This document shows, piece after piece, positions 1 to 19,439 of a stretch of 28,068 nt of DNA. The stretch is taken from positions 1-28,068 of the IMG/VR virus record IMGVR_UViG_2663762948_000001. One strand, 5' to 3'. A model generated the notes under the pieces. The model was not told where the DNA came from, searched no databases, and saw only the letters and a list, made by a program, of their open reading frames with translations. The DNA comes from a virus (taxonomy: Duplodnaviria > Heunggongvirae > Uroviricota > Caudoviricetes). How positions within the stretch are numbered: position 1 is the stretch's first letter; the number at the start of each line of letters is the position of its first letter. Both the position numbers and the translations under genes were made by a program.

Positions 1-483
1 TGCACGGTTATCTGCGCTTTGTTTACTGGCTATGCCTGATGGCTGCGGTGAAAGCAGCTGAATAACCCCACCGAGGAACAACGAGGCACCAGTGGCAGCA
101 GCAAACCCCGTCAATCCACCAGCAGCGAAAGCAGCGCCAATACCGCCGGGGCCAGTCAACACAGCAGCAGTAATAAGCACGGCCCCCAAGATCGTCTGCA
201 AAAGACCAGCCTTTTTACTCCCTATTACTACAGGGACAATCCGGATCACTTCGCCGGTGACGGGAAAGCCGAGATCATCAACGCCAATATTCTTTTTATC
301 TCTATAAACGGCATACGTCAGCCCTCGTGCTTTGCTTGTGTTTAAGAATTTCTCGAATCCATTGATGGTTTTCGCGAGTGCATTAATGGCTTCAGCAGTA
401 GTGCGAACCAGACGGTGATGAACCCTTCCATATGTCTTAGCTAGCACGCCACTTAGCTCAATTCTTGTCATTACCTCTTGCAT
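1..483 (-). CDS. I: Tail assembly protein I, N-terminal part (C-terminus lies beyond the window start)
   Basis: ATG at 483..481 (alternative ATG at 471..469) reads MQEVMTRIELSG..., then a glycine-rich hydrophobic stretch; no stop before position 1. Sits directly downstream of K as in lambda, and the architecture matches my recollection of lambda gpI. Confidence 0.6.
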   Translation of the reverse strand, partial: MQEVMTRIELSGVLAKTYGRVHHRLVRTTAEAINALAKTINGFEKFLNTSKARGLTYAVYRDKKNIGVDDLGFPVTGEVIRIVPVVIGSKKAGLLQTILGAVLITAAVLTGPGGIGAAFAAGGLTGFAAATGASLFLGGVIQLLSPQPSGIASKQSADNRA

Positions 484-494
484 GCTGCCCCCAT

Positions 495-517
495 AAAAAA
501 ACCACCCGTAGGTGGTT
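495..517 (-). terminator. Intrinsic terminator-like hairpin plus U-tract between the small membrane ORF and gene I
   Basis: Minus-strand RNA has stem AACCACC/GGUGGUU with loop UACG (517..500), followed by a U run (499..495), then the I start codon. Confidence 0.5.
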
Positions 518-532
518 TGTTAATTTACGCTC

Positions 533-757
533 TCAAAGCCCAGCTTTTTTCCTTGCTTCTTCAAGGTAGTTTTCTTTCGACTGGTCTTTGTTATTTGCCT
601 CGAAGTTTGGATCTACTATTTTTGATAATTTCTGGTCGATAGACTCAAGTAATTCAACCTGCCTGTTCGCTCTGACGCTGGCGCGGTTGATGAAAAACCA
701 GAGAATTAACCCAATAAAAATACCGACGAAGATCCAACCAAACCCAACTGTATACAT
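533..757 (-). CDS. Small single-pass membrane protein, moron inserted between K and I; paralog of 5922..6110
   Basis: 74 aa; N-terminal hydrophobic helix, then a charged coiled-coil-like tail; AAGGAG RBS upstream of ATG 757..755. Shares the motif R-x-S-x-RAN-x-QVE-x-L-x-x-I with the 5922..6110 product. Confidence 0.65.
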   Translation of the reverse strand: MYTVGFGWIFVGIFIGLILWFFINRASVRANRQVELLESIDQKLSKIVDPNFEANNKDQSKENYLEEARKKAGL

Positions 758-804
758 ATCGTTCTCCTTGCCGTGTACTACACGATAGTATCAGTGACAG
801 TTTG

Positions 805-1515
805 TTAAATAAAATTCTGATGTCTAAGAATCTTCATCGTCCTTTCCTGCCAGTAGCCACCATACGGCACGCGTTGGCTCAGATGTCCGTACAGGTGGTG
901 CAGCAGCATATTGCCCTCCAGCAGAATTCCAGCGTGGTTCCACTTATCAGCCTGGACCTGCATGATCACCATATCGCCGGGTTTCGGTGGCCCGTCGAAT
1001 TCCCGGAATCCGCACTCATACCAGCAATCCTGATAGAAGTTGTCCGGATAGTCGTTTTCCCACCAGGGATAATCAACCCGGTAATCGTGGAGCTCGATAC
1101 CATGCGTTTGCCGGAAATAGCTCATTACCAGCCCCCAGCAGTCGAAGTGTCCAAGCACAAACGGACGCTCCAGCAGTGGCAGTTCTCCGCGCGGCTGGAT
1201 GGTGCGTAAATCCCCCTCCGGCCAGCTCACAATATGCCAGGGTAAAAGCGTTGCGTCGCATTGCGCTTTATCCAGTTCGCTCGGCTGCGTTGTGGCGTCA
1301 GGGTGACTGTGAACGATGGCGATCACCGTTCCCCAGTCCTCAGCAGCTGCGTAGTCTTCGGGGCAAAGGACAAAATTGTCCTCCGGCGCCGCGGCAAGAT
1401 TCCGGCACGGGAAATAACGTTCAACGCGGCTTTTCTGCGCCACCACGCCGCAACACTCAAGAGGATATTCAGCTGCAGCATGCGCCATAATCGCATCTAT
1501 GGTTTTCTGACGCAT
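805..1515 (-). CDS. K: Tail assembly protein K (JAB/MPN plus NlpC/P60-type)
   Basis: 236 aa; ECCG and HSHP motifs typical of JAB/MPN and a Cys/His C-terminal half; ATG start overlaps the L stop; position matches lambda K. Confidence 0.8.
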   Translation of the reverse strand: MRQKTIDAIMAHAAAEYPLECCGVVAQKSRVERYFPCRNLAAAPEDNFVLCPEDYAAAEDWGTVIAIVHSHPDATTQPSELDKAQCDATLLPWHIVSWPEGDLRTIQPRGELPLLERPFVLGHFDCWGLVMSYFRQTHGIELHDYRVDYPWWENDYPDNFYQDCWYECGFREFDGPPKPGDMVIMQVQADKWNHAGILLEGNMLLHHLYGHLSQRVPYGGYWQERTMKILRHQNFI

Positions 1516-2612: not shown

Positions 2613-5600
2613 TTATCGGGTTCCTTTCATTGCGTTCCAGATGTCACCGCCAGGGCGAATATCTCGCATGATGTTCTGCTTATATCGCTGATCAATATAT
2701 TTACCGACATCAGCACCAAATTGCTCAAGGCCGGGTGAAGTCTGCGTGGAAGTATTTCCGTTGCCATCGATGGTGATGTAAACCTGTGGAGCCGAAGATA
2801 CAGCCTGACCACCACCAGTGCCAACAGCCCGAACGCCAAGCGAACCATCAGCAGCACGGGTAAGCGGCATAATGGCTTCAGGTCCAGCCTCTGCAAACAC
2901 ACCCGCTCCTTTGGCAAAAGCAAAAAGCTGAGGGGTCTGAAACACGCCATTGCTGTATGCGCTCAGGGACGGAGAGTCGTAAACATTACCCTTCGCGTTA
3001 AAGGTGAAGTTCGCGCCAGCGTTCTGAATTGCAGTACCGCTACTGGCGGCAGCGGCGGAAGATGCGCCAAAGCTGAAGAGAGAACCAATTGAACTGACGC
3101 CGTTAGCAACAGCCATGTTCACCAGAACGTTCTGGATGATCTTCAGTACGCTCACGCCCCAGTCCTTCCAGCTGTCAACGTTGCCATTGAGCATGTCGGT
3201 GATCGTGGTGACCGCGCCACCCATGGCCTGCTTCATGCCGTCAGCGGCCATGGAAGAATAATCAGTAGCTTCGTCCACCCAGTTCGCATAACCCTCAGAC
3301 AGTCCCGTCATCCAGTCGTCACGCTGCGCATCAGAAGCTGCGTAATATCCCTCCTGGTCGCGCAGGCGCTCTTCGAGGTAGCGCTTATTAAGTGCCAGCC
3401 CCTGCTGATAGAACGTCTCGTCGATTTCACCAGCCTGACGCTGGCGGAGAAGATCGGTATTCTTCTGCTCAAACTCCTTACGCAGATTGAACTGCTCCTG
3501 AAGTCTTTCACGGAACCTGGTTCCCTGCCCGTAGCCCAGCAGTTGCGCTTCATTGGCTGCGCGGGCGCTGGCGTTACTGTCAGCAAGGTTGGCTTCGTAA
3601 TTTCGCAGTTGCTCACGCAATTTAACCTGATCGATGAGAGCAGCATTACGCATAACTTCGGCTTTCTGGGCCTGACTTAGCGTAGAAAGCTCACCCTGGC
3701 TTACCTGATATTTAACCTTTGCCAGCTCGGTATTCTGCCCTTGCAGAGCGATCTGCTCTTTTTGCTGCTTGATCAGCTTGTCATAGGTATCAGCTGTTTT
3801 TTCCGCCTCGGATTTTCCACCCTTATGGCGGCTTGAGTTACGAATTGCTTGTAATTGCCTGGCAGACTCAACTTCCATGCTGACATATTTCTCACGCCAA
3901 CCAGCTGGAAGGTTCAGATCAGATGCATCGAATTCTGCCTGCTTTCGAGCCTTATCCAAACCCTGAAGGCCAGATAACTCAAGCTGTCGCTGTGCTTTCT
4001 CAATAGCTTGTTGTTGCTTATTATCAAGCGCAGGAAGTACAGGTCCTGCATATTTTGGTGGGGACACTGCTGTAGACTGTCTGGAAACCTTGTTCAGCCG
4101 GTCATACATCTCTGTAAGAGAACTTACGGCGCCAGCCATTTCTACTGTTTTATTTATAGCCTGATCAGTTATGTCGTTTATTAACTGTTGTGTTTGCTTT
4201 CTTTTATTGAGCATTTGCTCAAGTCGGCCTTCTTCAACCGCAAGTTCTGAAGCAAAGTCTGCGGCTTTCTCAACCGCATCGTTATACAGCCATGTCCCCT
4301 CTGAAGCAGAATTGGCTGCTAATTTTGCGTTATAAAGTTGATTGGATAATTCAGCAACTTTCTGCTTCTGCTGTTCAATCGCACTATTCTGAGCATCCAG
4401 TGAAATATTCGCCTGTCCAAGGTTGGCGGATATCTGCGTCTGAGACATTGATTTCAGATTATCTCGTACCTGCTCGATTGTGTCCGCATATTGGATTGCA
4501 GATTCCCTGGCTTGTTCTTGGCGTTGATACATCGTGTACCACGCCCCAGCACCCAACATTAAAATTCCTGGCAAACCACCAACTAACGACAAAAGACCCG
4601 TAGCGCCAGTTTTTACAAGCCCCAGCACTGATGTTGCAGAGTTAAGTGCCTGCTGAGAGGCTGCAACGGCTCTGTTTGACTGTACCAGTGCCGCATTTGC
4701 TGTAATCATTGCCCGGCGCTTGGATATGGCATTTTGAGTGGCAGTAGCCTCAGCATTAGTATTCTTTGCCAGCACAAGTTCTGACTGAGCAAGCTGGTAA
4801 GCTCGCTCAGCAGCAATAGCATCGGCGGCGGCCTTGCGTTGTGATTGGGTAGCAGATTCAGCCCTTGCAGCTGCGAGCGCAATTTCGTTCTTTCTGGCAT
4901 CTATTAATTGCGCCGTCTGGTTCCCAAGATCGCCAAACATCCCTCCAAGATAGCGAGCTCCACCTATCGCAGCCAAAGCTCCGGCAGCCGTAGCCACAGT
5001 GTCTATATTGTCAGAAACCGTATTCAATACGGCAACAAGAGTACTTGTCGCACCAGTGGCTTCATTAGCGCCACCTACCCATGCCATGAAAGCATTTTCG
5101 ACTTTCGTCGTGGCAGCAGAAACGGTCTGCGGCATTGCCTCAAATTCACCACGCATAGTGCCAAGTTGACTTATCAGGGCCGGGACAACTTTATCTGCGG
5201 TTAGCATCCCCTGATCGGCCATTGCCTTCAGATCTTTACGAGCTACACCCATCCCTGCGGCAAGAGCACGGATAACTCGATCACCGTTTTCGTTGACGGA
5301 GTTAAATTCCTCGCCTCGAAGAACACCCTGCGCCAGAGCCTGGCTGAACTGCGTGATTACCGAACTCGCTTCAGACGCGCTTGCGCCTGACAGCTTAAGC
5401 CCTGTTGATATAGCCTCGGTTACCTTCAGAACCTCTTCTGAACTGTAGCCATATTCACGCATAGAAGCGGCTGAACGCGCAAAAAGACTCGCATTATCAG
5501 AGAAGGCGGTTCCGGTTCGCTGGCTAATATCCATCAGCGCCCGCTGGGACTCCGTGAAATCATCTGACGACTGGGAAGCCTGCTTTAGCCTGGCATTAAC

Positions 5601-5891
5601 AGAGCTCCATTCATCGGCCAGCGATATAAGATGACCAGTCGCAAATGCTCCAGCAAATGCACCAGCCATTCCCAGTGCTGAGGCCTTCGCGGTGTTTATT
5701 TGACTAGTTACCTCAGCCAAGGCACGCTGAGTTTCACGCGAAGCTGCGGCCGATTGGCGTCCTCCAGTCTGCATTACCCGGTAATAGTCATTCCCCATTC
5801 TTGAAGCACGAGAAATTTCAGACTGGAATGACTGAGAGTTTGCAGATATTTTGATGATCAGTTCGCGCAACGTAGCCATATTTTCACCCAT
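2613..5891 (-). CDS. H: Tail tape measure protein
   Basis: 1092 aa, Ala/Gln-rich coiled-coil, low-complexity, longest ORF in the tail cluster, located between G/GT and M. Confidence 0.9.
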   Translation of the reverse strand: MGENMATLRELIIKISANSQSFQSEISRASRMGNDYYRVMQTGGRQSAAASRETQRALAEVTSQINTAKASALGMAGAFAGAFATGHLISLADEWSSVNARLKQASQSSDDFTESQRALMDISQRTGTAFSDNASLFARSAASMREYGYSSEEVLKVTEAISTGLKLSGASASEASSVITQFSQALAQGVLRGEEFNSVNENGDRVIRALAAGMGVARKDLKAMADQGMLTADKVVPALISQLGTMRGEFEAMPQTVSAATTKVENAFMAWVGGANEATGATSTLVAVLNTVSDNIDTVATAAGALAAIGGARYLGGMFGDLGNQTAQLIDARKNEIALAAARAESATQSQRKAAADAIAAERAYQLAQSELVLAKNTNAEATATQNAISKRRAMITANAALVQSNRAVAASQQALNSATSVLGLVKTGATGLLSLVGGLPGILMLGAGAWYTMYQRQEQARESAIQYADTIEQVRDNLKSMSQTQISANLGQANISLDAQNSAIEQQKQKVAELSNQLYNAKLAANSASEGTWLYNDAVEKAADFASELAVEEGRLEQMLNKRKQTQQLINDITDQAINKTVEMAGAVSSLTEMYDRLNKVSRQSTAVSPPKYAGPVLPALDNKQQQAIEKAQRQLELSGLQGLDKARKQAEFDASDLNLPAGWREKYVSMEVESARQLQAIRNSSRHKGGKSEAEKTADTYDKLIKQQKEQIALQGQNTELAKVKYQVSQGELSTLSQAQKAEVMRNAALIDQVKLREQLRNYEANLADSNASARAANEAQLLGYGQGTRFRERLQEQFNLRKEFEQKNTDLLRQRQAGEIDETFYQQGLALNKRYLEERLRDQEGYYAASDAQRDDWMTGLSEGYANWVDEATDYSSMAADGMKQAMGGAVTTITDMLNGNVDSWKDWGVSVLKIIQNVLVNMAVANGVSSIGSLFSFGASSAAAASSGTAIQNAGANFTFNAKGNVYDSPSLSAYSNGVFQTPQLFAFAKGAGVFAEAGPEAIMPLTRAADGSLGVRAVGTGGGQAVSSAPQVYITIDGNGNTSTQTSPGLEQFGADVGKYIDQRYKQNIMRDIRPGGDIWNAMKGTR

Positions 5892-5914
5892 AAAAAAACC
5901 CGCTTGATAGCGGG
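5892..5914 (-). terminator. Intrinsic terminator-like hairpin plus U7 directly upstream of the tape measure start codon
   Basis: Minus-strand RNA has stem CCCGC/GCGGG with loop UAUCAA (5914..5899), then UUUUUUU (5898..5892), then AUG at 5891. Confidence 0.5.
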
Positions 5915-5921
5915 TCGTGAG

Positions 5922-6110
5922 TTATAAACTGTCTTTTCTTTGGTGAGCGACTTGTATTAATAAATCTATTTGCGCATCTTGCTTTTTATTTATCTCTTTA
6001 AGGGCTTCAACTTGTTCATTTGCCCTTGTGCTAAACCGTAATAAATAAAAAATCACAATTAGATTTATCAGCCAGCCGAATATTCCAAACACTACTACCA
6101 GTGGTTCCAT
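5922..6110 (-). CDS. Small single-pass membrane protein, moron between G/GT and tape measure (the position of HK97 gp15)
   Basis: 62 aa; N-terminal TM helix, then a charged tail; AAGGAGG RBS upstream of ATG 6110..6108; followed by its own terminator. Confidence 0.7.
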   Translation of the reverse strand: MEPLVVVFGIFGWLINLIVIFYLLRFSTRANEQVEALKEINKKQDAQIDLLIQVAHQRKDSL

Positions 6111-6167
6111 AACGCCTCCTTTACTTAAGGAAAGAGCGTATCGCTACATTGAAGGCATGTGAAGCAA

Positions 6168-6478
6168 TTATTGTGTCGCAGCTGTAAGTGCCGCCTCAAG
6201 CCCTGCAAACGGGTCCTTCGGTTCTGATTGCTCATCACCACCCCAGCGCAGGATCGCATCGTCCAGCGGTACTTTTGCCCCCTGCGAGCCGTAGATGGCA
6301 GAGACAATCTGCGCTGCATGGATATCACCGCGAATATCGCCAACCGGGCTTTGCCTGTCGTACTCAATCCACATCAGAAGCTCGCTTGCCGTCATATTCT
6401 GCCGAAGCTCTGAGAGCGTGCGCCCCATCCGGAGCGCAAGCGACATCAGAAACTTTACGCCGGGGGTTGAGACTTTTC
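6168..6478 (-). CDS. T: T-frame part of the tail assembly chaperone GT (made by -1 frameshift from G)
   Basis: This frame is -1 relative to G and is open from the GGGAAAAG site down to the stop at 6168; product contains MTASELLMWIEY... Confidence 0.7.
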
Positions 6479-6841
6479 CCGCGCTTCGTCCGCATTGTTG
6501 ATCAGGTCAAGCGCCTGTTTGAGCAGACGTGAGTGCACGGGCCCGTAAATTTCACGCACCTGCTCTTCTTCGTCTACGCTGAATACCGGTTGCTTATCGG
6601 TGTCACACAGAACGTCAATGAAGAGCACCACGTCAGCGCAAAGATTACGGTGCGCCTTTTCCGATACCGACACATTTTCATCGTCGCCCCCCCCTTTCAC
6701 CACCTCCTGCCAGCGCAGCCAGGCTTCACCTGACGGCTCACGGAGAACCACTTTGACACCTTCCCACTCAGGGACAACGACCGTCTTATGGCGAAAGCCA
6801 GCCATTTTCGCCATGGCTAATTGTTTTAAAGTTTGCGACAT
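6455..6841 (-). CDS. G: Tail assembly chaperone G
   Basis: 128 aa between the major tail gene and the T frame; acidic C-terminal region; overlaps the T frame. Confidence 0.8.
   Translation of the reverse strand: MSQTLKQLAMAKMAGFRHKTVVVPEWEGVKVVLREPSGEAWLRWQEVVKGGGDDENVSVSEKAHRNLCADVVLFIDVLCDTDKQPVFSVDEEEQVREIYGPVHSRLLKQALDLINNADEAREKSQPPA
6473..6481 (-). promoter_or_regulatory. Candidate programmed -1 ribosomal frameshift site (G to GT)
   Basis: Minus strand reads CGGGAAAAG; the G frame decodes CGG GAA AAG, the -1 frame decodes GGA AAA and stays open into T. Lambda uses GGGAAAG at the equivalent place (from memory). Confidence 0.55.
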
Positions 6842-6875
6842 CGCTTATCCATGCCGGGACAACCCGGCATCTCCA

Positions 6876-7987: not shown

Positions 7988-8433
7988 TTGCTCAATACCT
8001 CATCAATAGCCTGATTCATCCTGGCAATGGCGACGCTGGCGGCCTCTTCCTCGCGAGTATCGTAAGCGGGTCGCACAAACGGATGTGCAGGCATGTTCGC
8101 GGTTCCCATTTCAACGAATCGCCAGTAAAAGGCGTTTCTCGGGTTCTTCGCCTTCATCGTGTTATCGCTGTTGCCGGTGCGCGGGTTAACGCCACGAATA
8201 TGGACGCCGGAAGAAATTTCCCCGCGGCGACGGCTTTTTTGGGTCACCACCACCACGTTTTTTTTCAGTTTCCCGGTACGCACCGGAGCGCGGGCGATCA
8301 CCTCTTCCTTAAGCACTTCGGCACCGGCGCGCGTGGCATCACGCAGAACCTTGTTATTTTCAGCGCGGCTAAGCGCCTCCAGATCCTTTGCGATGTCATT
8401 TAACCCGGAAAAATCGAGGCTCGTCTCAATCAT
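7984..8433 (-). CDS. Head-tail joining protein (HK97 gp10-like family)
   Basis: 149 aa, translationally coupled (ATGA overlap); contains HPFVRPA resembling the gp10-family motif. Confidence 0.6.
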   Translation of the reverse strand: MIETSLDFSGLNDIAKDLEALSRAENNKVLRDATRAGAEVLKEEVIARAPVRTGKLKKNVVVVTQKSRRRGEISSGVHIRGVNPRTGNSDNTMKAKNPRNAFYWRFVEMGTANMPAHPFVRPAYDTREEEAASVAIARMNQAIDEVLSK

Positions 8434-8768: not shown

Positions 8769-9094
8769 CAGGAGCCCTCCTCAGGTTCAGATTTACCGCG
8801 CCAGTTGCGATGAATGAACATCATGCGTTCGGCGGCTGCATTCTCATAAAGCTGCACTTCGCTTTGTGCCGTCCGGTGTTCAAACATGTCAGCAAAGACA
8901 AGCAGAACGGCGCCCTTAACGGCGGCAGGAATATCAGCCGCAACCTTCCATGCTGGTTCATCGCACCAGCGCATGCAGTAGTCAAAAGCGGCCTGGGCGT
9001 ACAGCGTGATCAGCTCGTCCCTGTCGTCTTCCTCAAACTCAATCTGCTGCTTAAACAGACTGAGGGGAATTACATCCAGAACATCTATCGCCAT
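8768..9094 (-). CDS. gp6-like head-tail connector protein
   Basis: 108 aa acidic protein immediately downstream of the major capsid gene. Confidence 0.6.
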   Translation of the reverse strand: MAIDVLDVIPLSLFKQQIEFEEDDRDELITLYAQAAFDYCMRWCDEPAWKVAADIPAAVKGAVLLVFADMFEHRTAQSEVQLYENAAAERMMFIHRNWRGKSEPEEGS

Positions 9095-9130
9095 ACGTTA
9101 AAAGGGCGGGTTTCCCCGCCCCCTCCATCA

Positions 9131-10287: not shown

Positions 10288-10977
10288 TTATTTACCTAAG
10301 TTAGAAGGGAAAGATTTGATGCTCTGAAGCAGAGCGTTTATTTGTGCTTCGTTTCCGTCGCCCTCGGACTCGCTCCGAATCGCTGACTTAAACCGGGCTA
10401 TTAGCCCAACTGCCTGTGATTTGGTGAGGCCGACTGAATCCCTCAGCCAGTTCTCCACATCACGAATCGTTTCAATGCCATCGACACTTTTCATGGCTGC
10501 GATGCCAGCCTGTTCGTTGGCGGGGAAAGTGCAGACGCTGATTTCGCGCAGAGCCTGGATATTCTTAAAAATGCGGCCTGTTGGAATGATGGTGTAATCG
10601 TCTTTCGAAACGGAAAAGCCAACCGACATACCTTCAACCGTACCGTGCTGCATTGCCGCTTTTAGGTCAGCGGCGCCGCTGTGTCCTGGGGTAAGTTGAC
10701 CGCGCACATACAGGCCTTTTTCGTCCTCAGCCAGGCTGTCCCATTTGCCAACCGGCAGTTCCCACGTCCTGTGGTTAAAAAACATCGCCACTTTTCGGGT
10801 CTGGTTCGCCAGCGCGTTTTTAAACGCCCCGGGCAGAATGATGTCGCCATCGGAATCGGTGTTATTAAAAACAGAGGCGTAGCCTTCAAAAATCCCCTGT
10901 TTACCGTCACCGGTGAATTTGATTTCTGTCTCGTCGAAGGACAGCGTTTTTACGATTTCAGGCATTACGGCCCCCAT
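10288..10977 (-). CDS. Prohead protease, HK97 family
   Basis: 229 aa between portal and major capsid genes; start is ATG 10977..10975. Confidence 0.8.
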   Translation of the reverse strand: MGAVMPEIVKTLSFDETEIKFTGDGKQGIFEGYASVFNNTDSDGDIILPGAFKNALANQTRKVAMFFNHRTWELPVGKWDSLAEDEKGLYVRGQLTPGHSGAADLKAAMQHGTVEGMSVGFSVSKDDYTIIPTGRIFKNIQALREISVCTFPANEQAGIAAMKSVDGIETIRDVENWLRDSVGLTKSQAVGLIARFKSAIRSESEGDGNEAQINALLQSIKSFPSNLGK

Positions 10978-10982
10978 AAAAA

Positions 10983-12257
10983 TTAAGCCCCGTTATTACG
11001 GGGCTCTTTGTTGGTTCCTAAATCGGTGATCGGCACGTATTGCGACTGGCGCATTGCCACATCGCCACCCGGCAATGGCGGGAGGTTGTCCGTTCGTCGC
11101 ATCTCGTTGATGGTGCGTAGCCCTGCCTCTCCCATTGCCTTCATAAAGGCAGCGCGGGATGCCGAATCGCCCCTCAGCAGGCCGTCGAGGTTGTGCTCAG
11201 CATGAATGCGGCCAACATCCTTAGCAGGAATAAGCCACCGCTGAATGCTGTTTTCCCACCTGGAGATATAGGGCTGCAGGGTGTACTGCAGGAAGCCGAG
11301 ATTCTGCTGCTCGATGCCCGATCCCCAGCTCGTTGATTTCTCGACGTCGCCGACAAGGTGAGGCGGTACGCCAAAGAATCGCGCCAGTTCACTTACCTGA
11401 AATTTTCGGGACGCCATCATTTCGGCATCCTGCGGAGTTACGCCAATTGCCGATGTAGAAAAACCCGCTTCCAGAATCCAGAGGCGTTTTTTTACCGGGC
11501 CGCCGGCGATCTCTTTGAAGTTCTCTTCGACCTGGGAGCGCTGCTGTTCAGTTAGCACTTTTTCGCCAGTTGAGAGGATTTGCGGAGACTTGGCGCCGTT
11601 GGCAAAGAAATCTCGCTGCTGGTCCTCCATCGCAACTGCCACACCTGCCGATTTACAGGCAAAAGCAATGGGTGACAGGCCTACAAGCCCGGTGAATCCG
11701 AAGCCTTTAAGGTGAAAAATCTCTTTCTGCGAAAAGTCGGCGTATTCGCTGTCGCGTTGATAGCGATAAACCACTTTTTTTCCGACTAGTTTCACATCCA
11801 TATTGGCAGACTGAAGCGGGAGAAGGCTGATCACGTCACCTGCGCTGTTGCGGTCCACAAGTGCATATGCGTTACCGTAGAAACAGAGCTGCATCGTCAT
11901 GGCCTCCCTGAATTCTTGGGCGGTCATGTACTGATTCGGCGAGTAGCGCAGCAGTCGCGCCAGTGGATTGCTCAAATCCACTTTTTTACGGTTGTCATTC
12001 TGGTCTGTTTCGAAGACATCAAGCGGTAAGCATGCCGTGAGCGTTGAAATCAGGCTCACGCAGCGCCACACAGTCGAAATTTGCAGTATCCGTTCATCGT
12101 TAATGGATGAATCGCCCAGGTGTCCGTGGGCCGAAACAGGCCCCGTCTGTGAGCCCTGATTTGGGGTGACTAAACGCCCGCCGACAAACCAGGACTGCAG
12201 CCTTGCCCACCAGCCGTTATTGGTTCGCAGGTCAATCGTGTATTTAGGTTCTTCCAT
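10983..12257 (-). CDS. Portal protein
   Basis: About 424 aa; ATG at 12257..12255 overlaps the large terminase stop by 1 nt; the ORF track's first codon at 12260 is GTG. Confidence 0.85.
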   Translation of the reverse strand: MEEPKYTIDLRTNNGWWARLQSWFVGGRLVTPNQGSQTGPVSAHGHLGDSSINDERILQISTVWRCVSLISTLTACLPLDVFETDQNDNRKKVDLSNPLARLLRYSPNQYMTAQEFREAMTMQLCFYGNAYALVDRNSAGDVISLLPLQSANMDVKLVGKKVVYRYQRDSEYADFSQKEIFHLKGFGFTGLVGLSPIAFACKSAGVAVAMEDQQRDFFANGAKSPQILSTGEKVLTEQQRSQVEENFKEIAGGPVKKRLWILEAGFSTSAIGVTPQDAEMMASRKFQVSELARFFGVPPHLVGDVEKSTSWGSGIEQQNLGFLQYTLQPYISRWENSIQRWLIPAKDVGRIHAEHNLDGLLRGDSASRAAFMKAMGEAGLRTINEMRRTDNLPPLPGGDVAMRQSQYVPITDLGTNKEPRNNGA

Positions 12258-13777: not shown

Positions 13778-14263
13778 TTATCCGTGCTTGGGAAAGGCGA
13801 TCAGGTTGTCGTCCTGGTCCTGATGCTCGTTTTTGGTATTCCGTGCATCACGATCGTTCTGATTACGTTTCTTCTGGTCGCGACTTTCGCCGTTGGTTGC
13901 GTGGGAGTGGATCTGGAGGTCGCGGCGCTGAGCCAGGATAGTTCGTTGTAGCTCAACAATCTGCTTGCGTAGGTCTTTGATAAGCCCTTCGTCGCGGCCC
14001 TCTCCGCGAATTCGCTCTTCTTTGCGTAAATCCTTGCGTAAAACGGTGATATAGAGCTGATTATTAGCAAGTTCTACGGCGGCTAGCAGGTCGGCAGGCG
14101 TCCAGCTGTCCAGAGCTTTCGATCTGATATTGTCATGCCAGAATGGTTCGGCTTTTTTCTCCAAACCTGCATGGGACGGCGGATCGATGGTGTCCACAGC
14201 TGCATTTTTCATGGCCTGAACCGCTGCCGCCGAACTGTCGGAACGGATTCGTTTATCTGCCAT
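13778..14263 (-). CDS. Terminase small subunit
   Basis: 161 aa, highly charged C-terminus, immediately upstream of the large terminase. Confidence 0.7.
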   Translation of the reverse strand: MADKRIRSDSSAAAVQAMKNAAVDTIDPPSHAGLEKKAEPFWHDNIRSKALDSWTPADLLAAVELANNQLYITVLRKDLRKEERIRGEGRDEGLIKDLRKQIVELQRTILAQRRDLQIHSHATNGESRDQKKRNQNDRDARNTKNEHQDQDDNLIAFPKHG

Positions 14264-18680: not shown

Positions 18681-18708
18681 AAAAAGCCCCGAGCTATTAA
18701 CTCAGGGC
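18681..18708 (-). terminator. Intrinsic terminator of the short pR' transcript (tR'-equivalent)
   Basis: Minus-strand RNA has an 8-bp stem GCCCUGAG/CUCGGGGC with loop UUAAUAG, followed by UUUUUC. Confidence 0.5.
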
Positions 18709-18744
18709 TTTATTTAACGAGTGCATTTATCCATCGTTGAGTCA

Positions 18745-18773
18745 AATTTACCCAATTTTATTCAATAAGTCAA
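18745..18773 (-). promoter_or_regulatory. Late promoter pR' with adjacent qut-like region
   Basis: Minus strand reads TTGACT (18773..18768), a 17-nt spacer, then TAAATT (18750..18745), followed by TTTGACTCAACGATGG; this matches the lambda pR' region as I recall it. Confidence 0.6.
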
Positions 18774-18815: not shown

Positions 18816-19439
18816 CTAACGTGTGACCGCATTCAAAATGTTGTCTGCGATTGACTCTTCCTTGTGGCATTGCACCACCAGAGCGTCATACAGCGGCTTA
18901 ACAGTGCGTGACCAGGTGGGTTGAGTAAGGTTTGGGATTAGCATCGTTACAGCGCGATATGCGGCGCTTGCTGGCATTCTTGAATAGCCGACACCTTTGC
19001 ATCTTCCGCACTCTTTCTCAACAACTCTCCCCAACTGCTCTGTTTTTGATATATCAACCGCACGGCCTGTACCGTGGCAATCTCTGCATCTTGCGCCCGG
19101 CGTCGCGGCACTACGGCAATAATCCGCATAAGCGAATGTTGCGAGCACTTGCAGTACCTTTGCCTTAGTATTTCCTTCGAGCTTTGCCACACCACGGTAT
19201 TTCCCCGATACCTTGTGTGCAAATTGCATCAGATAGTTGATAGCCTTTTGTTTGTCGTTCTGGCTGAGTTCGTGCTTACCACAGAATGCAGCCATTCCGA
19301 ATCCGGCTTGTGATTGCGCCATCCCCATAGCAGCCATCACATCAGTACCGGAAAGAGAGTCAGAAGCCGTGGCCCGTGGTGAGTCGCTCATCATCGGGCT
19401 TTTTGGCGAATGAAATTTAGCTACGCTTTCGAGTCTCAT
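18816..19439 (-). CDS. Q: Late antiterminator Q
   Basis: 207 aa starting MRLESVAKFHSPKSPMMSDSPRATASD with a Cys-rich zinc-binding region; appears near-identical to lambda Q from memory. Confidence 0.85.
   Translation of the reverse strand: MRLESVAKFHSPKSPMMSDSPRATASDSLSGTDVMAAMGMAQSQAGFGMAAFCGKHELSQNDKQKAINYLMQFAHKVSGKYRGVAKLEGNTKAKVLQVLATFAYADYCRSAATPGARCRDCHGTGRAVDISKTEQLGRVVEKECGRCKGVGYSRMPASAAYRAVTMLIPNLTQPTWSRTVKPLYDALVVQCHKEESIADNILNAVTR

Follow-up and report, generated by a model that had tools for sequence, protein, structure and literature searches.

Two hairpins of an HK97-like phage end within a few nucleotides of the first AUG before tape measure gene H and tail assembly gene I, which raises the question of whether such structures only end the transcript upstream or also take part in starting translation of the gene downstream. 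The initial annotation of the stretch of DNA analyzed here (the window; 28,068 nt) had proposed, from positions 5889 to 5914, that intrinsic terminators sit directly on the start sites of H and I, that the U-tract replaces a canonical Shine-Dalgarno sequence, and that termination and initiation are thereby physically coupled. We consider it highly probable that the hairpin before H is the Rho-independent terminator of the HK97 gene-15 moron, with a twin at 495 to 518 after the gene-20 moron, and that 10 to 12 nt farther on H and I begin at independent, Shine-Dalgarno-driven starts at positions 5879 and 483, respectively.

The window belongs to an HK97-like lambdoid phage, its structural region being 98 to 100% identical to those of mEpX1, HK633, HK75, HK97, HK446, HK106, and mEp234, with 99.8 to 100% identity to HK97, HK446, HK106, mEp234, and mEpX1 in the region of the feature itself. 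The minus strand carries the late genes as well as all of the features described below, and Pfam searches confirmed the tape measure protein, the G and T tail chaperones, K, I, and the Q antiterminator.

On the minus strand, the site before H reads in the order UAA stop codon of gene 15 (5924 to 5922), CUCAC, stem-loop, U7, AUG 5891, GGUGAAAAU, and AUG 5879. The stem-loop (GACCCGCU-AUCA-AGCGGGUU; 5897 to 5916, minus strand), found by both terminator scan and folding, leads into the U7 tract of the gene 15 terminator (5892 to 5898, minus strand; T7 in the window vs T8 in HK97), and an upstream in-frame AUG (5889 to 5891, minus strand), which is not a conserved start, adjoins this tract, just as the initial annotation had read it. 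The stability of the hairpin, on which that annotation had made its proposal depend, was borne out, as the hairpin alone folds with −12.4 kcal/mol and a 51-nt RNA containing it with −14.9 kcal/mol (z = −2.4). Moreover, it ranks among the strongest of the 44 sites detected by a window-wide terminator scan, vs 21.2 ± 5.9 sites in shuffled sequences, and the strongest sites lie mostly on the coding strand. The minimum-energy fold also contains an ACUCA-UGGGU pairing around the hairpin that would mask the Shine-Dalgarno sequence; as a regulatory helix it was rejected, given a gain of ∼2.5 kcal/mol and a 5′ partner that varies (L022 class). Tape measure gene H (gp16; 2613 to 5879, minus strand), recognized by the Pfam families TMP_3, Phage_HK97_TLTM, and Tape_meas_lam_C, starts with MATLRELIIK and is preceded by the Shine-Dalgarno sequence GGGUGA (5884 to 5889, minus strand), which occupies positions −10 to −5 of AUG 5879, leaves a 4-nt spacer, and forms a duplex of −6.7 kcal/mol with the 16S rRNA 3′ end. 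Upstream of AUG 5891, the sole purine-rich stretch is the 3′ arm of the hairpin.

The site before I is arranged in the same manner, with the stem-loop (518 to 499), U7 (501 to 495), AUG 494, GGGGCAGC, and AUG 483 in that order. Its stem-loop (AAACCACC-UACG-GGUGGUUU; 499 to 518, minus strand), which follows gene 20, was detected by scan and folding and is an annotated terminator in the HK97 and mEpX1 records; its U7 (495 to 501, minus strand) is directly followed by AUG, rather than by the A-U that the initial annotation had placed between a U5 and the AUG. AUG 494 is out of frame with I and opens a 7-codon upstream open reading frame (MGAACKR*; 471 to 494, minus strand). Tail assembly gene I (gp21; 1 to 483, minus strand, running off the window), a member of the lambda-I family (PF06805), starts with MQEVMTRIELSG at AUG 483, 11 nt past the U-run, and has the Shine-Dalgarno sequence GGGGG (488 to 492, minus strand; −8.4 kcal/mol with the 16S rRNA 3′ end) 5 to 9 nt before this AUG. 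Two further candidates were considered at this site. AUG 471, with the Shine-Dalgarno sequence AAGAGGU and a Pfam alignment that begins at residue 5, was set aside as the start of I, since the x-E-V-M extension and the upstream Shine-Dalgarno sequence are kept in 44/44 relatives, and AUG 483 is the start favored by sequence conservation. The 7-codon frame, whose UAA overlaps AUG 471, was likewise rejected as a coupling device, given that its upstream AUG is not conserved.

Both hairpins have 8 pairs and a 4-nt loop followed by an uninterrupted U7, and both lie on the transcribed strand, 5 nt after the TAA of gene 15 and 14 nt after the TGA of gene 20. Placed at the 3′ ends of two morons, they have the canonical structure of intrinsic terminators, and both the hairpins and their proximity to the following gene are genuine and nonrandom. 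An Rfam scan of the whole window returned no family above threshold; thus, neither hairpin belongs to a curated small RNA or riboswitch. From structure, conservation, and curated annotation, we infer both the terminator activity of the hairpins and the choice of starts. The annotation in question exists already: the terminators, the morons, and the starts of H and I are given in earlier records (AF069529, JQ086372, and JQ182727). In the HK97 record (AF069529), positions 8398 to 8422 are labeled "terminator, putative," and H starts at the second AUG, equivalent to 5879 in the window; a second terminator stands at 13799 to 13824, and I starts at the AUG equivalent to 483, as it does in the mEpX1 (JQ182727) and HK446 records. 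The hand-annotated HK446 record also starts the tape measure at the equivalent of AUG 5879, 12 nt past the U-run, and a single later record (PV340543) places the start of H at the longest-reading-frame AUG, 5891. In addition, the two morons and their terminators have been in the literature since 2000 (Juhala et al., as summarized in PMC3594210).

The gene 15 moron is a 62-aa open reading frame (5922 to 6110, minus strand) for a YebO-like small membrane protein (PF13974, E = 1.2e−9), named "moron product" in the HK97 record, and its left edge is the stop codon of T, the T part of the G-T tail assembly chaperone (6168 to 6446, minus strand; PF06223). The gene 20 moron, which encodes a YebO-like paralogue of gp15 (74 aa; 533 to 757, minus strand; PF13974, E = 1.8e−12) and is called "moron gene product" in HK022, is bounded in the same way by the stop codon of tail gene K (805 to 1515, minus strand; Prok-JAB and NlpC/P60 domains); the two products share 43% identity over 44 residues. 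Both genes lie in long gaps, with 288 nt between T and H in the window vs 25 to 51 nt in 10 relatives and 321 nt between K and I vs 14 nt, and the GC content is 0.37 in gene 15 vs 0.54 in its flanks and 0.42 in gene 20. A standard promoter scan (9/12 or better) detected no promoter upstream of either moron. A relaxed search yielded a sigma-70-like candidate promoter for gene 15 (TTCACA-17-TACGCT, 8/12; 6135 to 6163, minus strand) and a candidate extended −10 element for gene 20 (TG-A-TACTAT, TGATACTAT; 785 to 792, minus strand), both of which are plausible but weak. The morons correspond to HK97 gene 15 and HK022/HK97 gene 20 as presented in PMC3594210 (Juhala et al. 2000; Cumby et al. 2012), with 97.5 to 100% identical DNA, the same open reading frames, the same flanking genes (T|H and K|I), and the same terminator positions, the terminators being annotated in GenBank; differences are minimal, apart from the T7/T8 run the only one noted being that gene 20 has an in-frame stop in HK97 and is intact in the window. 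The term moron was first applied to HK97 gene 15, which is described as having a promoter and a terminator of its own and as being expressed from the prophage; gp15, expressed in lysogens, excludes superinfecting phage (PMC3594210). The moron site of Tree et al. 2014 adjoins PR′, not the T|H junction (PMC4104026).

The late operon that contains the two hairpins also encodes a Q antiterminator. The Q antiterminator gene (18816 to 19439, minus strand; PF03589, E = 2.8e−56) is followed, just downstream, by a PR′-like promoter found in the promoter/terminator scan (TTGACT-17-TAAATT; 18773 to 18745, minus strand) and by the strongest terminator of the window (18711 to 18683, minus strand; −19.1 kcal/mol, z = −5.1), promoter and terminator together spanning 18683 to 18773. 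This succession of Q, PR′-like promoter, and promoter-proximal terminator is the classical PR′/tR′ layout. The two moron hairpins resemble the Rho-independent terminators of Q-antiterminated lambdoid late operons in the GC-rich 8-bp stem, the 4-nt loop, the U7, the coding-strand location, the position after a stop codon, and the presence of Q with its PR′-like promoter and terminator upstream, whereas the HK97 type differs from canonical Q-antiterminated operons in having seven hairpins inside the structural operon. In lambda, T and H overlap, and no hairpin is known there. Each of the seven putative terminators in the HK97 late operon ends 5 to 13 nt before the next start, and thus the closeness of terminator and start is general to this compact operon rather than specific to morons. 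The major capsid and major tail genes are flanked by hairpins of this set of seven, and the junction of portal and protease genes also shows a U-run followed by AUG.

The initial annotation had presumed that late transcription reads through by Q antitermination and that the terminator insulates the moron transcript in the lysogen. This part is supported, since it restates the moron model reported in PMC3594210 with reference to Juhala et al. 2000, and since Q, the PR′-like promoter, and the strong terminator are all present; the action itself would follow from this layout as predicted from sequence. In the lysogen, a putative weak sigma-70 promoter would drive a small YebO-like membrane protein, the expression of gp15 from the prophage being known from the literature, and the hairpin with its U7, judged from its structure, would end the moron transcript before H or I. 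During lytic growth, Q-modified RNA polymerase from PR′ would read through these and the other hairpins of the operon, as the presence of Q, the PR′-like promoter, and the terminator suggests. In the resulting read-through mRNA, the hairpin would lie at about −20 and a single-stranded U-run at −13 to −19, leaving the Shine-Dalgarno sequence and the AUG unpaired for conventional initiation; the U-run might mildly aid 30S binding via protein S1.

To define the starts of H and I, upstream regions of relatives were compared; the H set consisted of 87 loci of close homologues, which gave 45 distinct 60-nt upstream regions, and a Shine-Dalgarno core was counted at positions −16 to −4 of the start. 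Results revealed such a core between the U-run and the start in 45/45, 36/37, and 44/44 distinct relatives (125/126 overall), in the form of GGUGA, GGAG, or GAGG in all 45 H upstream regions and of GGAG/GGGG/GGTGG in all 44 distinct 60-nt I upstream regions. The last T-run ends 11 to 18 nt before the start of H in the 45 regions and 10 to 15 nt before the start of I in 41 of the 42 regions having a T-run; taken together, the end of the U-run lies 10 to 18 nt before the start in all distinct relatives measured but one. An AUG directly after the U-run occurs in 14/45, 6/37, and 21/44 distinct relatives. Before H, only the class bearing gene 15 has this AUG in frame; in OS31, HK542, L018, L021, and L026 its distance from the start is 11 nt, which puts it out of frame, and elsewhere the triplet after the U-run is AUU, AAU, or another, with no AUG. 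Moreover, in all tape-measure homologues examined, the start lies at the equivalent of 5879 and reads MA(T/S)LREL or MAGQT; among them are eight annotated ones, from phages of Escherichia, Klebsiella, Serratia, Enterobacter, Cronobacter, and Pseudomonas. For I, the N terminus M-(Q/S/P/K/T)-E-(V/I/N)-M-T-R-I-E-L is kept with synonymous third-position changes among 49 distinct upstream-plus-N-terminal sequences.

What recurs at these junctions is a hairpin, U5-8, A-U, a G-rich Shine-Dalgarno sequence, 4 to 8 nt, and AUG. The AUG that adjoins each U-run is thus best read, from the comparison of relatives, as a by-product of "AU" running into "GG..." in this pattern and not as a gene start. Minor use of AUG 5891 may occur, as this codon is in frame in phages of the gene-15 class and serves as the start in one later record (PV340543); the tape measure gene of that record, drawn from the longest reading frame, probably begins 4 codons too early. 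The terminators are consequently not placed on the start sites themselves, which lie 12 (5879) and 11 (483) nt past the U-runs, AUG 494 being out of frame; the Shine-Dalgarno sequence has not been replaced, GGGUGA for H and GGGGG for I both being present; and the proposed physical coupling of termination to initiation is unsupported, each gene having an independent Shine-Dalgarno sequence. As originally stated, the finding matters little, considering that the terminators were known and that the replacement of the Shine-Dalgarno sequence fails.

A different aspect of the locus emerged when the stop codon of T was located in each locus and the distance from there to H was measured. The gaps fell into two groups, 25 to 51 nt in 10 moron-less loci and 283 to 730 nt in loci with inserts. 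The inserts at T|H are of at least 10 different sizes, all on the same strand, with a GC content of 0.32 to 0.41 vs 0.49 to 0.55 in the flanks, and their products are YebO-like proteins, lipoproteins, and further small proteins of the secreted or membrane type. The hairpin and U-run are kept in 9 of the 10 moron-less loci (L010 is without them), and in the moron-less loci L011, L007, and L009 the stop codon of T lies inside or against the stem. One and the same stem-loop, AACCGC-UUCG-GCGGUU, is shared by a locus that has an insert (L066) and by loci that lack one (L004, L084, L089, and L091), and the stem of the window, ACCCGC/GCGGGU, recurs in the moron-less Serratia phage OS31. In all, 44 of 45 distinct H upstream regions contain a terminator-like hairpin followed by a T-rich tail, vs 1% of shuffled sequences, and most members of another tape-measure clade, which is more divergent, also have a hairpin before H. 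Among 69 distinct aligned sequences, the five core pairs are paired in 99.1% of cells, with at least one compensatory double change each, a result reached by 0 of 500 shuffles. Strong covariation, which had been expected for the T|H hairpin, was nevertheless not borne out, as there are only 7 compensatory cells and the CCCGC/GCGGG stem occurs in ∼63 of the 69 sequences, with loops that vary freely; covariation support is therefore modest for a stem that is largely conserved in sequence. Nor is the hairpin universal before H: it is absent from the T|H junction of the Burkholderia phages phiE125 and Bcep176, of Cronobacter ENT39118 (L010), and of HK022, whose tape measure is of another type.

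The most economical reading of these comparisons, by parsimony, is that the hairpin before H is probably resident on the tape-measure side and that morons insert between the stop codon of T and the hairpin; because the terminator after gene 15 is present in moron-less relatives too, it is probably resident and was not brought by the moron. The alternative, that the hairpin is the scar of a lost moron, is less parsimonious. The hairpin before I has a different origin, in that the moron-less L154 and L163 have a 14-nt K|I gap with a Shine-Dalgarno sequence only and no hairpin, and hairpins before I occur only together with inserts, which indicates, on this sequence comparison, that this hairpin came with the insert. 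A literature search found no specific report of terminators between chaperone and tape measure genes or of a moron hotspot there. The resident hairpin before H with a moron hotspot upstream is thus a modest addition, one that we did not find stated in the papers accessible to us.

In moron-less phages, a terminator before H could serve as a lytic-phase step-down, stabilize mRNA, or act as a fail-safe insulator, all of which are possible. We tentatively suggest, while regarding it as open to considerable doubt, that the hairpin before H forms a resident docking cassette of terminator plus ribosome-binding site, with a lytic role in moron-less phages as a step-down or mRNA 3′ stabilizer that sets high-copy V, G, and T against low-copy H to J. 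If this is true, a promoter and open reading frame landing between the stop codon of T and the hairpin would be terminated at once while H kept its Shine-Dalgarno sequence, which would account for the presence of at least 10 unrelated cargo genes of low GC content (for YebO-like proteins, lipoproteins, and secreted proteins) at exactly the T|H junction. With the terminator on the tape-measure side, the T|H gap would be a predictable site at which to search for cargo of prophages, including superinfection exclusion proteins and lipoproteins.

Alternatively, the hairpin before H may be mainly a lytic element rather than a lysogen insulator, either a partial step-down terminator or a 3′ stabilizer of processed mRNA by which V, G, and G-T messages exceed those of H to J, and which morons merely exploited. 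This is compatible with moron termination rather than exclusive of it, but we judge it rather unlikely as the principal function. Its conservation in 9 of 10 moron-less loci with gaps of 25 to 51 nt, the T stop codons inside or against it (L011, L007, and L009), its persistence in the more divergent clade, and the placement of the seven HK97 late-operon hairpins on either side of the major capsid and major tail genes all speak for a lytic role; its absence from phiE125, Bcep176, ENT39118 (L010), and HK022 shows that the hairpin is dispensable, and polymerase modified by lambda Q is expected to ignore intrinsic terminators.

In the reading closest to the initial annotation, the U-tract would be an S1-type ribosome-binding element, the AUG adjoining it would start H and I, and termination or the hairpin would be mechanically linked to initiation. 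Leaders rich in U can recruit ribosomal protein S1 and raise initiation, and the window likewise has a U-rich single-stranded stretch immediately 5′ of the ribosome-binding site, which could add affinity for S1. An AUG follows U7 at both sites, at the first of them (5891) in frame and used by one later record, and the recurrence of a U-run and AUG in the fractions of relatives given above and at the portal|protease junction may be counted in the same direction. However, AUG 494 is out of frame and opens only a 7-codon reading frame, the corresponding AUG before H does not share the frame of the gene in OS31, HK542, L018, L021, and L026 and is replaced by AUU or AAU in many others, the curated records choose the downstream AUG, and no stretch upstream of AUG 5891 is rich in purines except the hairpin 3′ arm. 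Moreover, unlike in S1-dependent initiation without a Shine-Dalgarno sequence, H and I have normally spaced Shine-Dalgarno sequences, with the U-run upstream of them, and the core follows the U-run in nearly all distinct relatives (125/126). Such a role of the U-tract is therefore very improbable.

That the hairpins are functionless chance inverted repeats is hardly conceivable, for although short GC-rich stems are common and ∼21 terminator-like sites are expected by chance in 20 kb, the shuffle (44/45 vs 1%) and pairing results, with compensatory changes in all five pairs and stems kept while loops vary, effectively refute this reading, and each hairpin falls exactly within an intergenic gap, on the coding strand, where curators annotated it independently.

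Split ribosome-binding sites bridged by a hairpin occur in phage T4 genes 38 and 25. A likeness to this type was seen only at the junction of the major capsid gene and gp6 (9126 to 9094), where GGAGG stands directly 5′ of a hairpin, the AUG lies 9 nt 3′ of it, and no Shine-Dalgarno sequence intervenes, whereas the junctions before H and I have a Shine-Dalgarno sequence between the hairpin and the AUG.

The junction between the major capsid gene and gp6 (positions 9094-9126, minus strand) resembles a split ribosome-binding site with a terminator hairpin as its bridge. At this junction, GGAGG (9126-9122) stands directly 5' of a hairpin with seven GC pairs (9121-9104), which is followed in order by UUUU, AACGU, and the AUG at 9094. 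Comparison of 28 distinct relatives revealed that the hairpin stem was constant while its loop was variable, and that a Shine-Dalgarno sequence between the U-run and the AUG was absent from all 28. This is the only junction at which hairpin formation and translation initiation could be truly coupled.

The portal-protease junction (10965-11006, minus strand), where the hairpin lies within the 3'-terminal part of the portal gene, repeats the pattern common to the junctions preceding the tail genes H and I, namely, a U-run, an AUG, a G-rich Shine-Dalgarno sequence, and another AUG. Here, the hairpin is followed in order by UUAAUUUUU, AUG, GGGGG, CCGUA, and a second AUG, the last being the protease start in the HK97 record. 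At the V-G junction, the hairpin GCCGGG-UUGU-CCCGGC (6851-6870, minus strand), designated a putative terminator in the HK97 annotation, has no U-tract and is followed by AUGGAUAAGCG and then by the AUG at 6841; this hairpin may not terminate transcription at all.

For the tape measure gene H, a later re-annotation of phage mEpX1 (PV340543.1; position 711 of locus L220) begins the protein at the upstream AUG, giving 1,092 amino acids. The second AUG, which gives 1,088 amino acids in the window, is the start in the hand-annotated records of HK97, HK446, and mEpX1 (JQ182727). Comparative evidence favors the shorter form.

The gap between the T stop codon and H (5917-6167 in the window and its equivalents in loci L004 to L092 of the relatives) is a hotspot of moron insertion. 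Across these loci, the inserts, which lie downstream of the T stop codon and upstream of the hairpin, fell into at least 10 classes of 283 to 730 nt, all with low GC content and on the same strand, with open reading frames starting ∼55 nt past the T stop codon and encoding YebO-like proteins, lipoproteins, and small secreted proteins. The tail operon contains a pair of paralogous morons (5922-6110 and 533-757, minus strand), whose products each match the Pfam family YebO (PF13974) and are 43% identical to each other over 44 residues. The HK97 copy of the second moron, gene 20, carries an in-frame stop codon. In the first, gene 15, only 5 nt separate the stop codon from the base of the hairpin before H (5916-5924, minus strand). 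A ribosome that ends translation at this codon would occlude the 5' arm of the hairpin; translation of gp15 might therefore reduce termination efficiency, and in the lysogen some transcription might run on into H.
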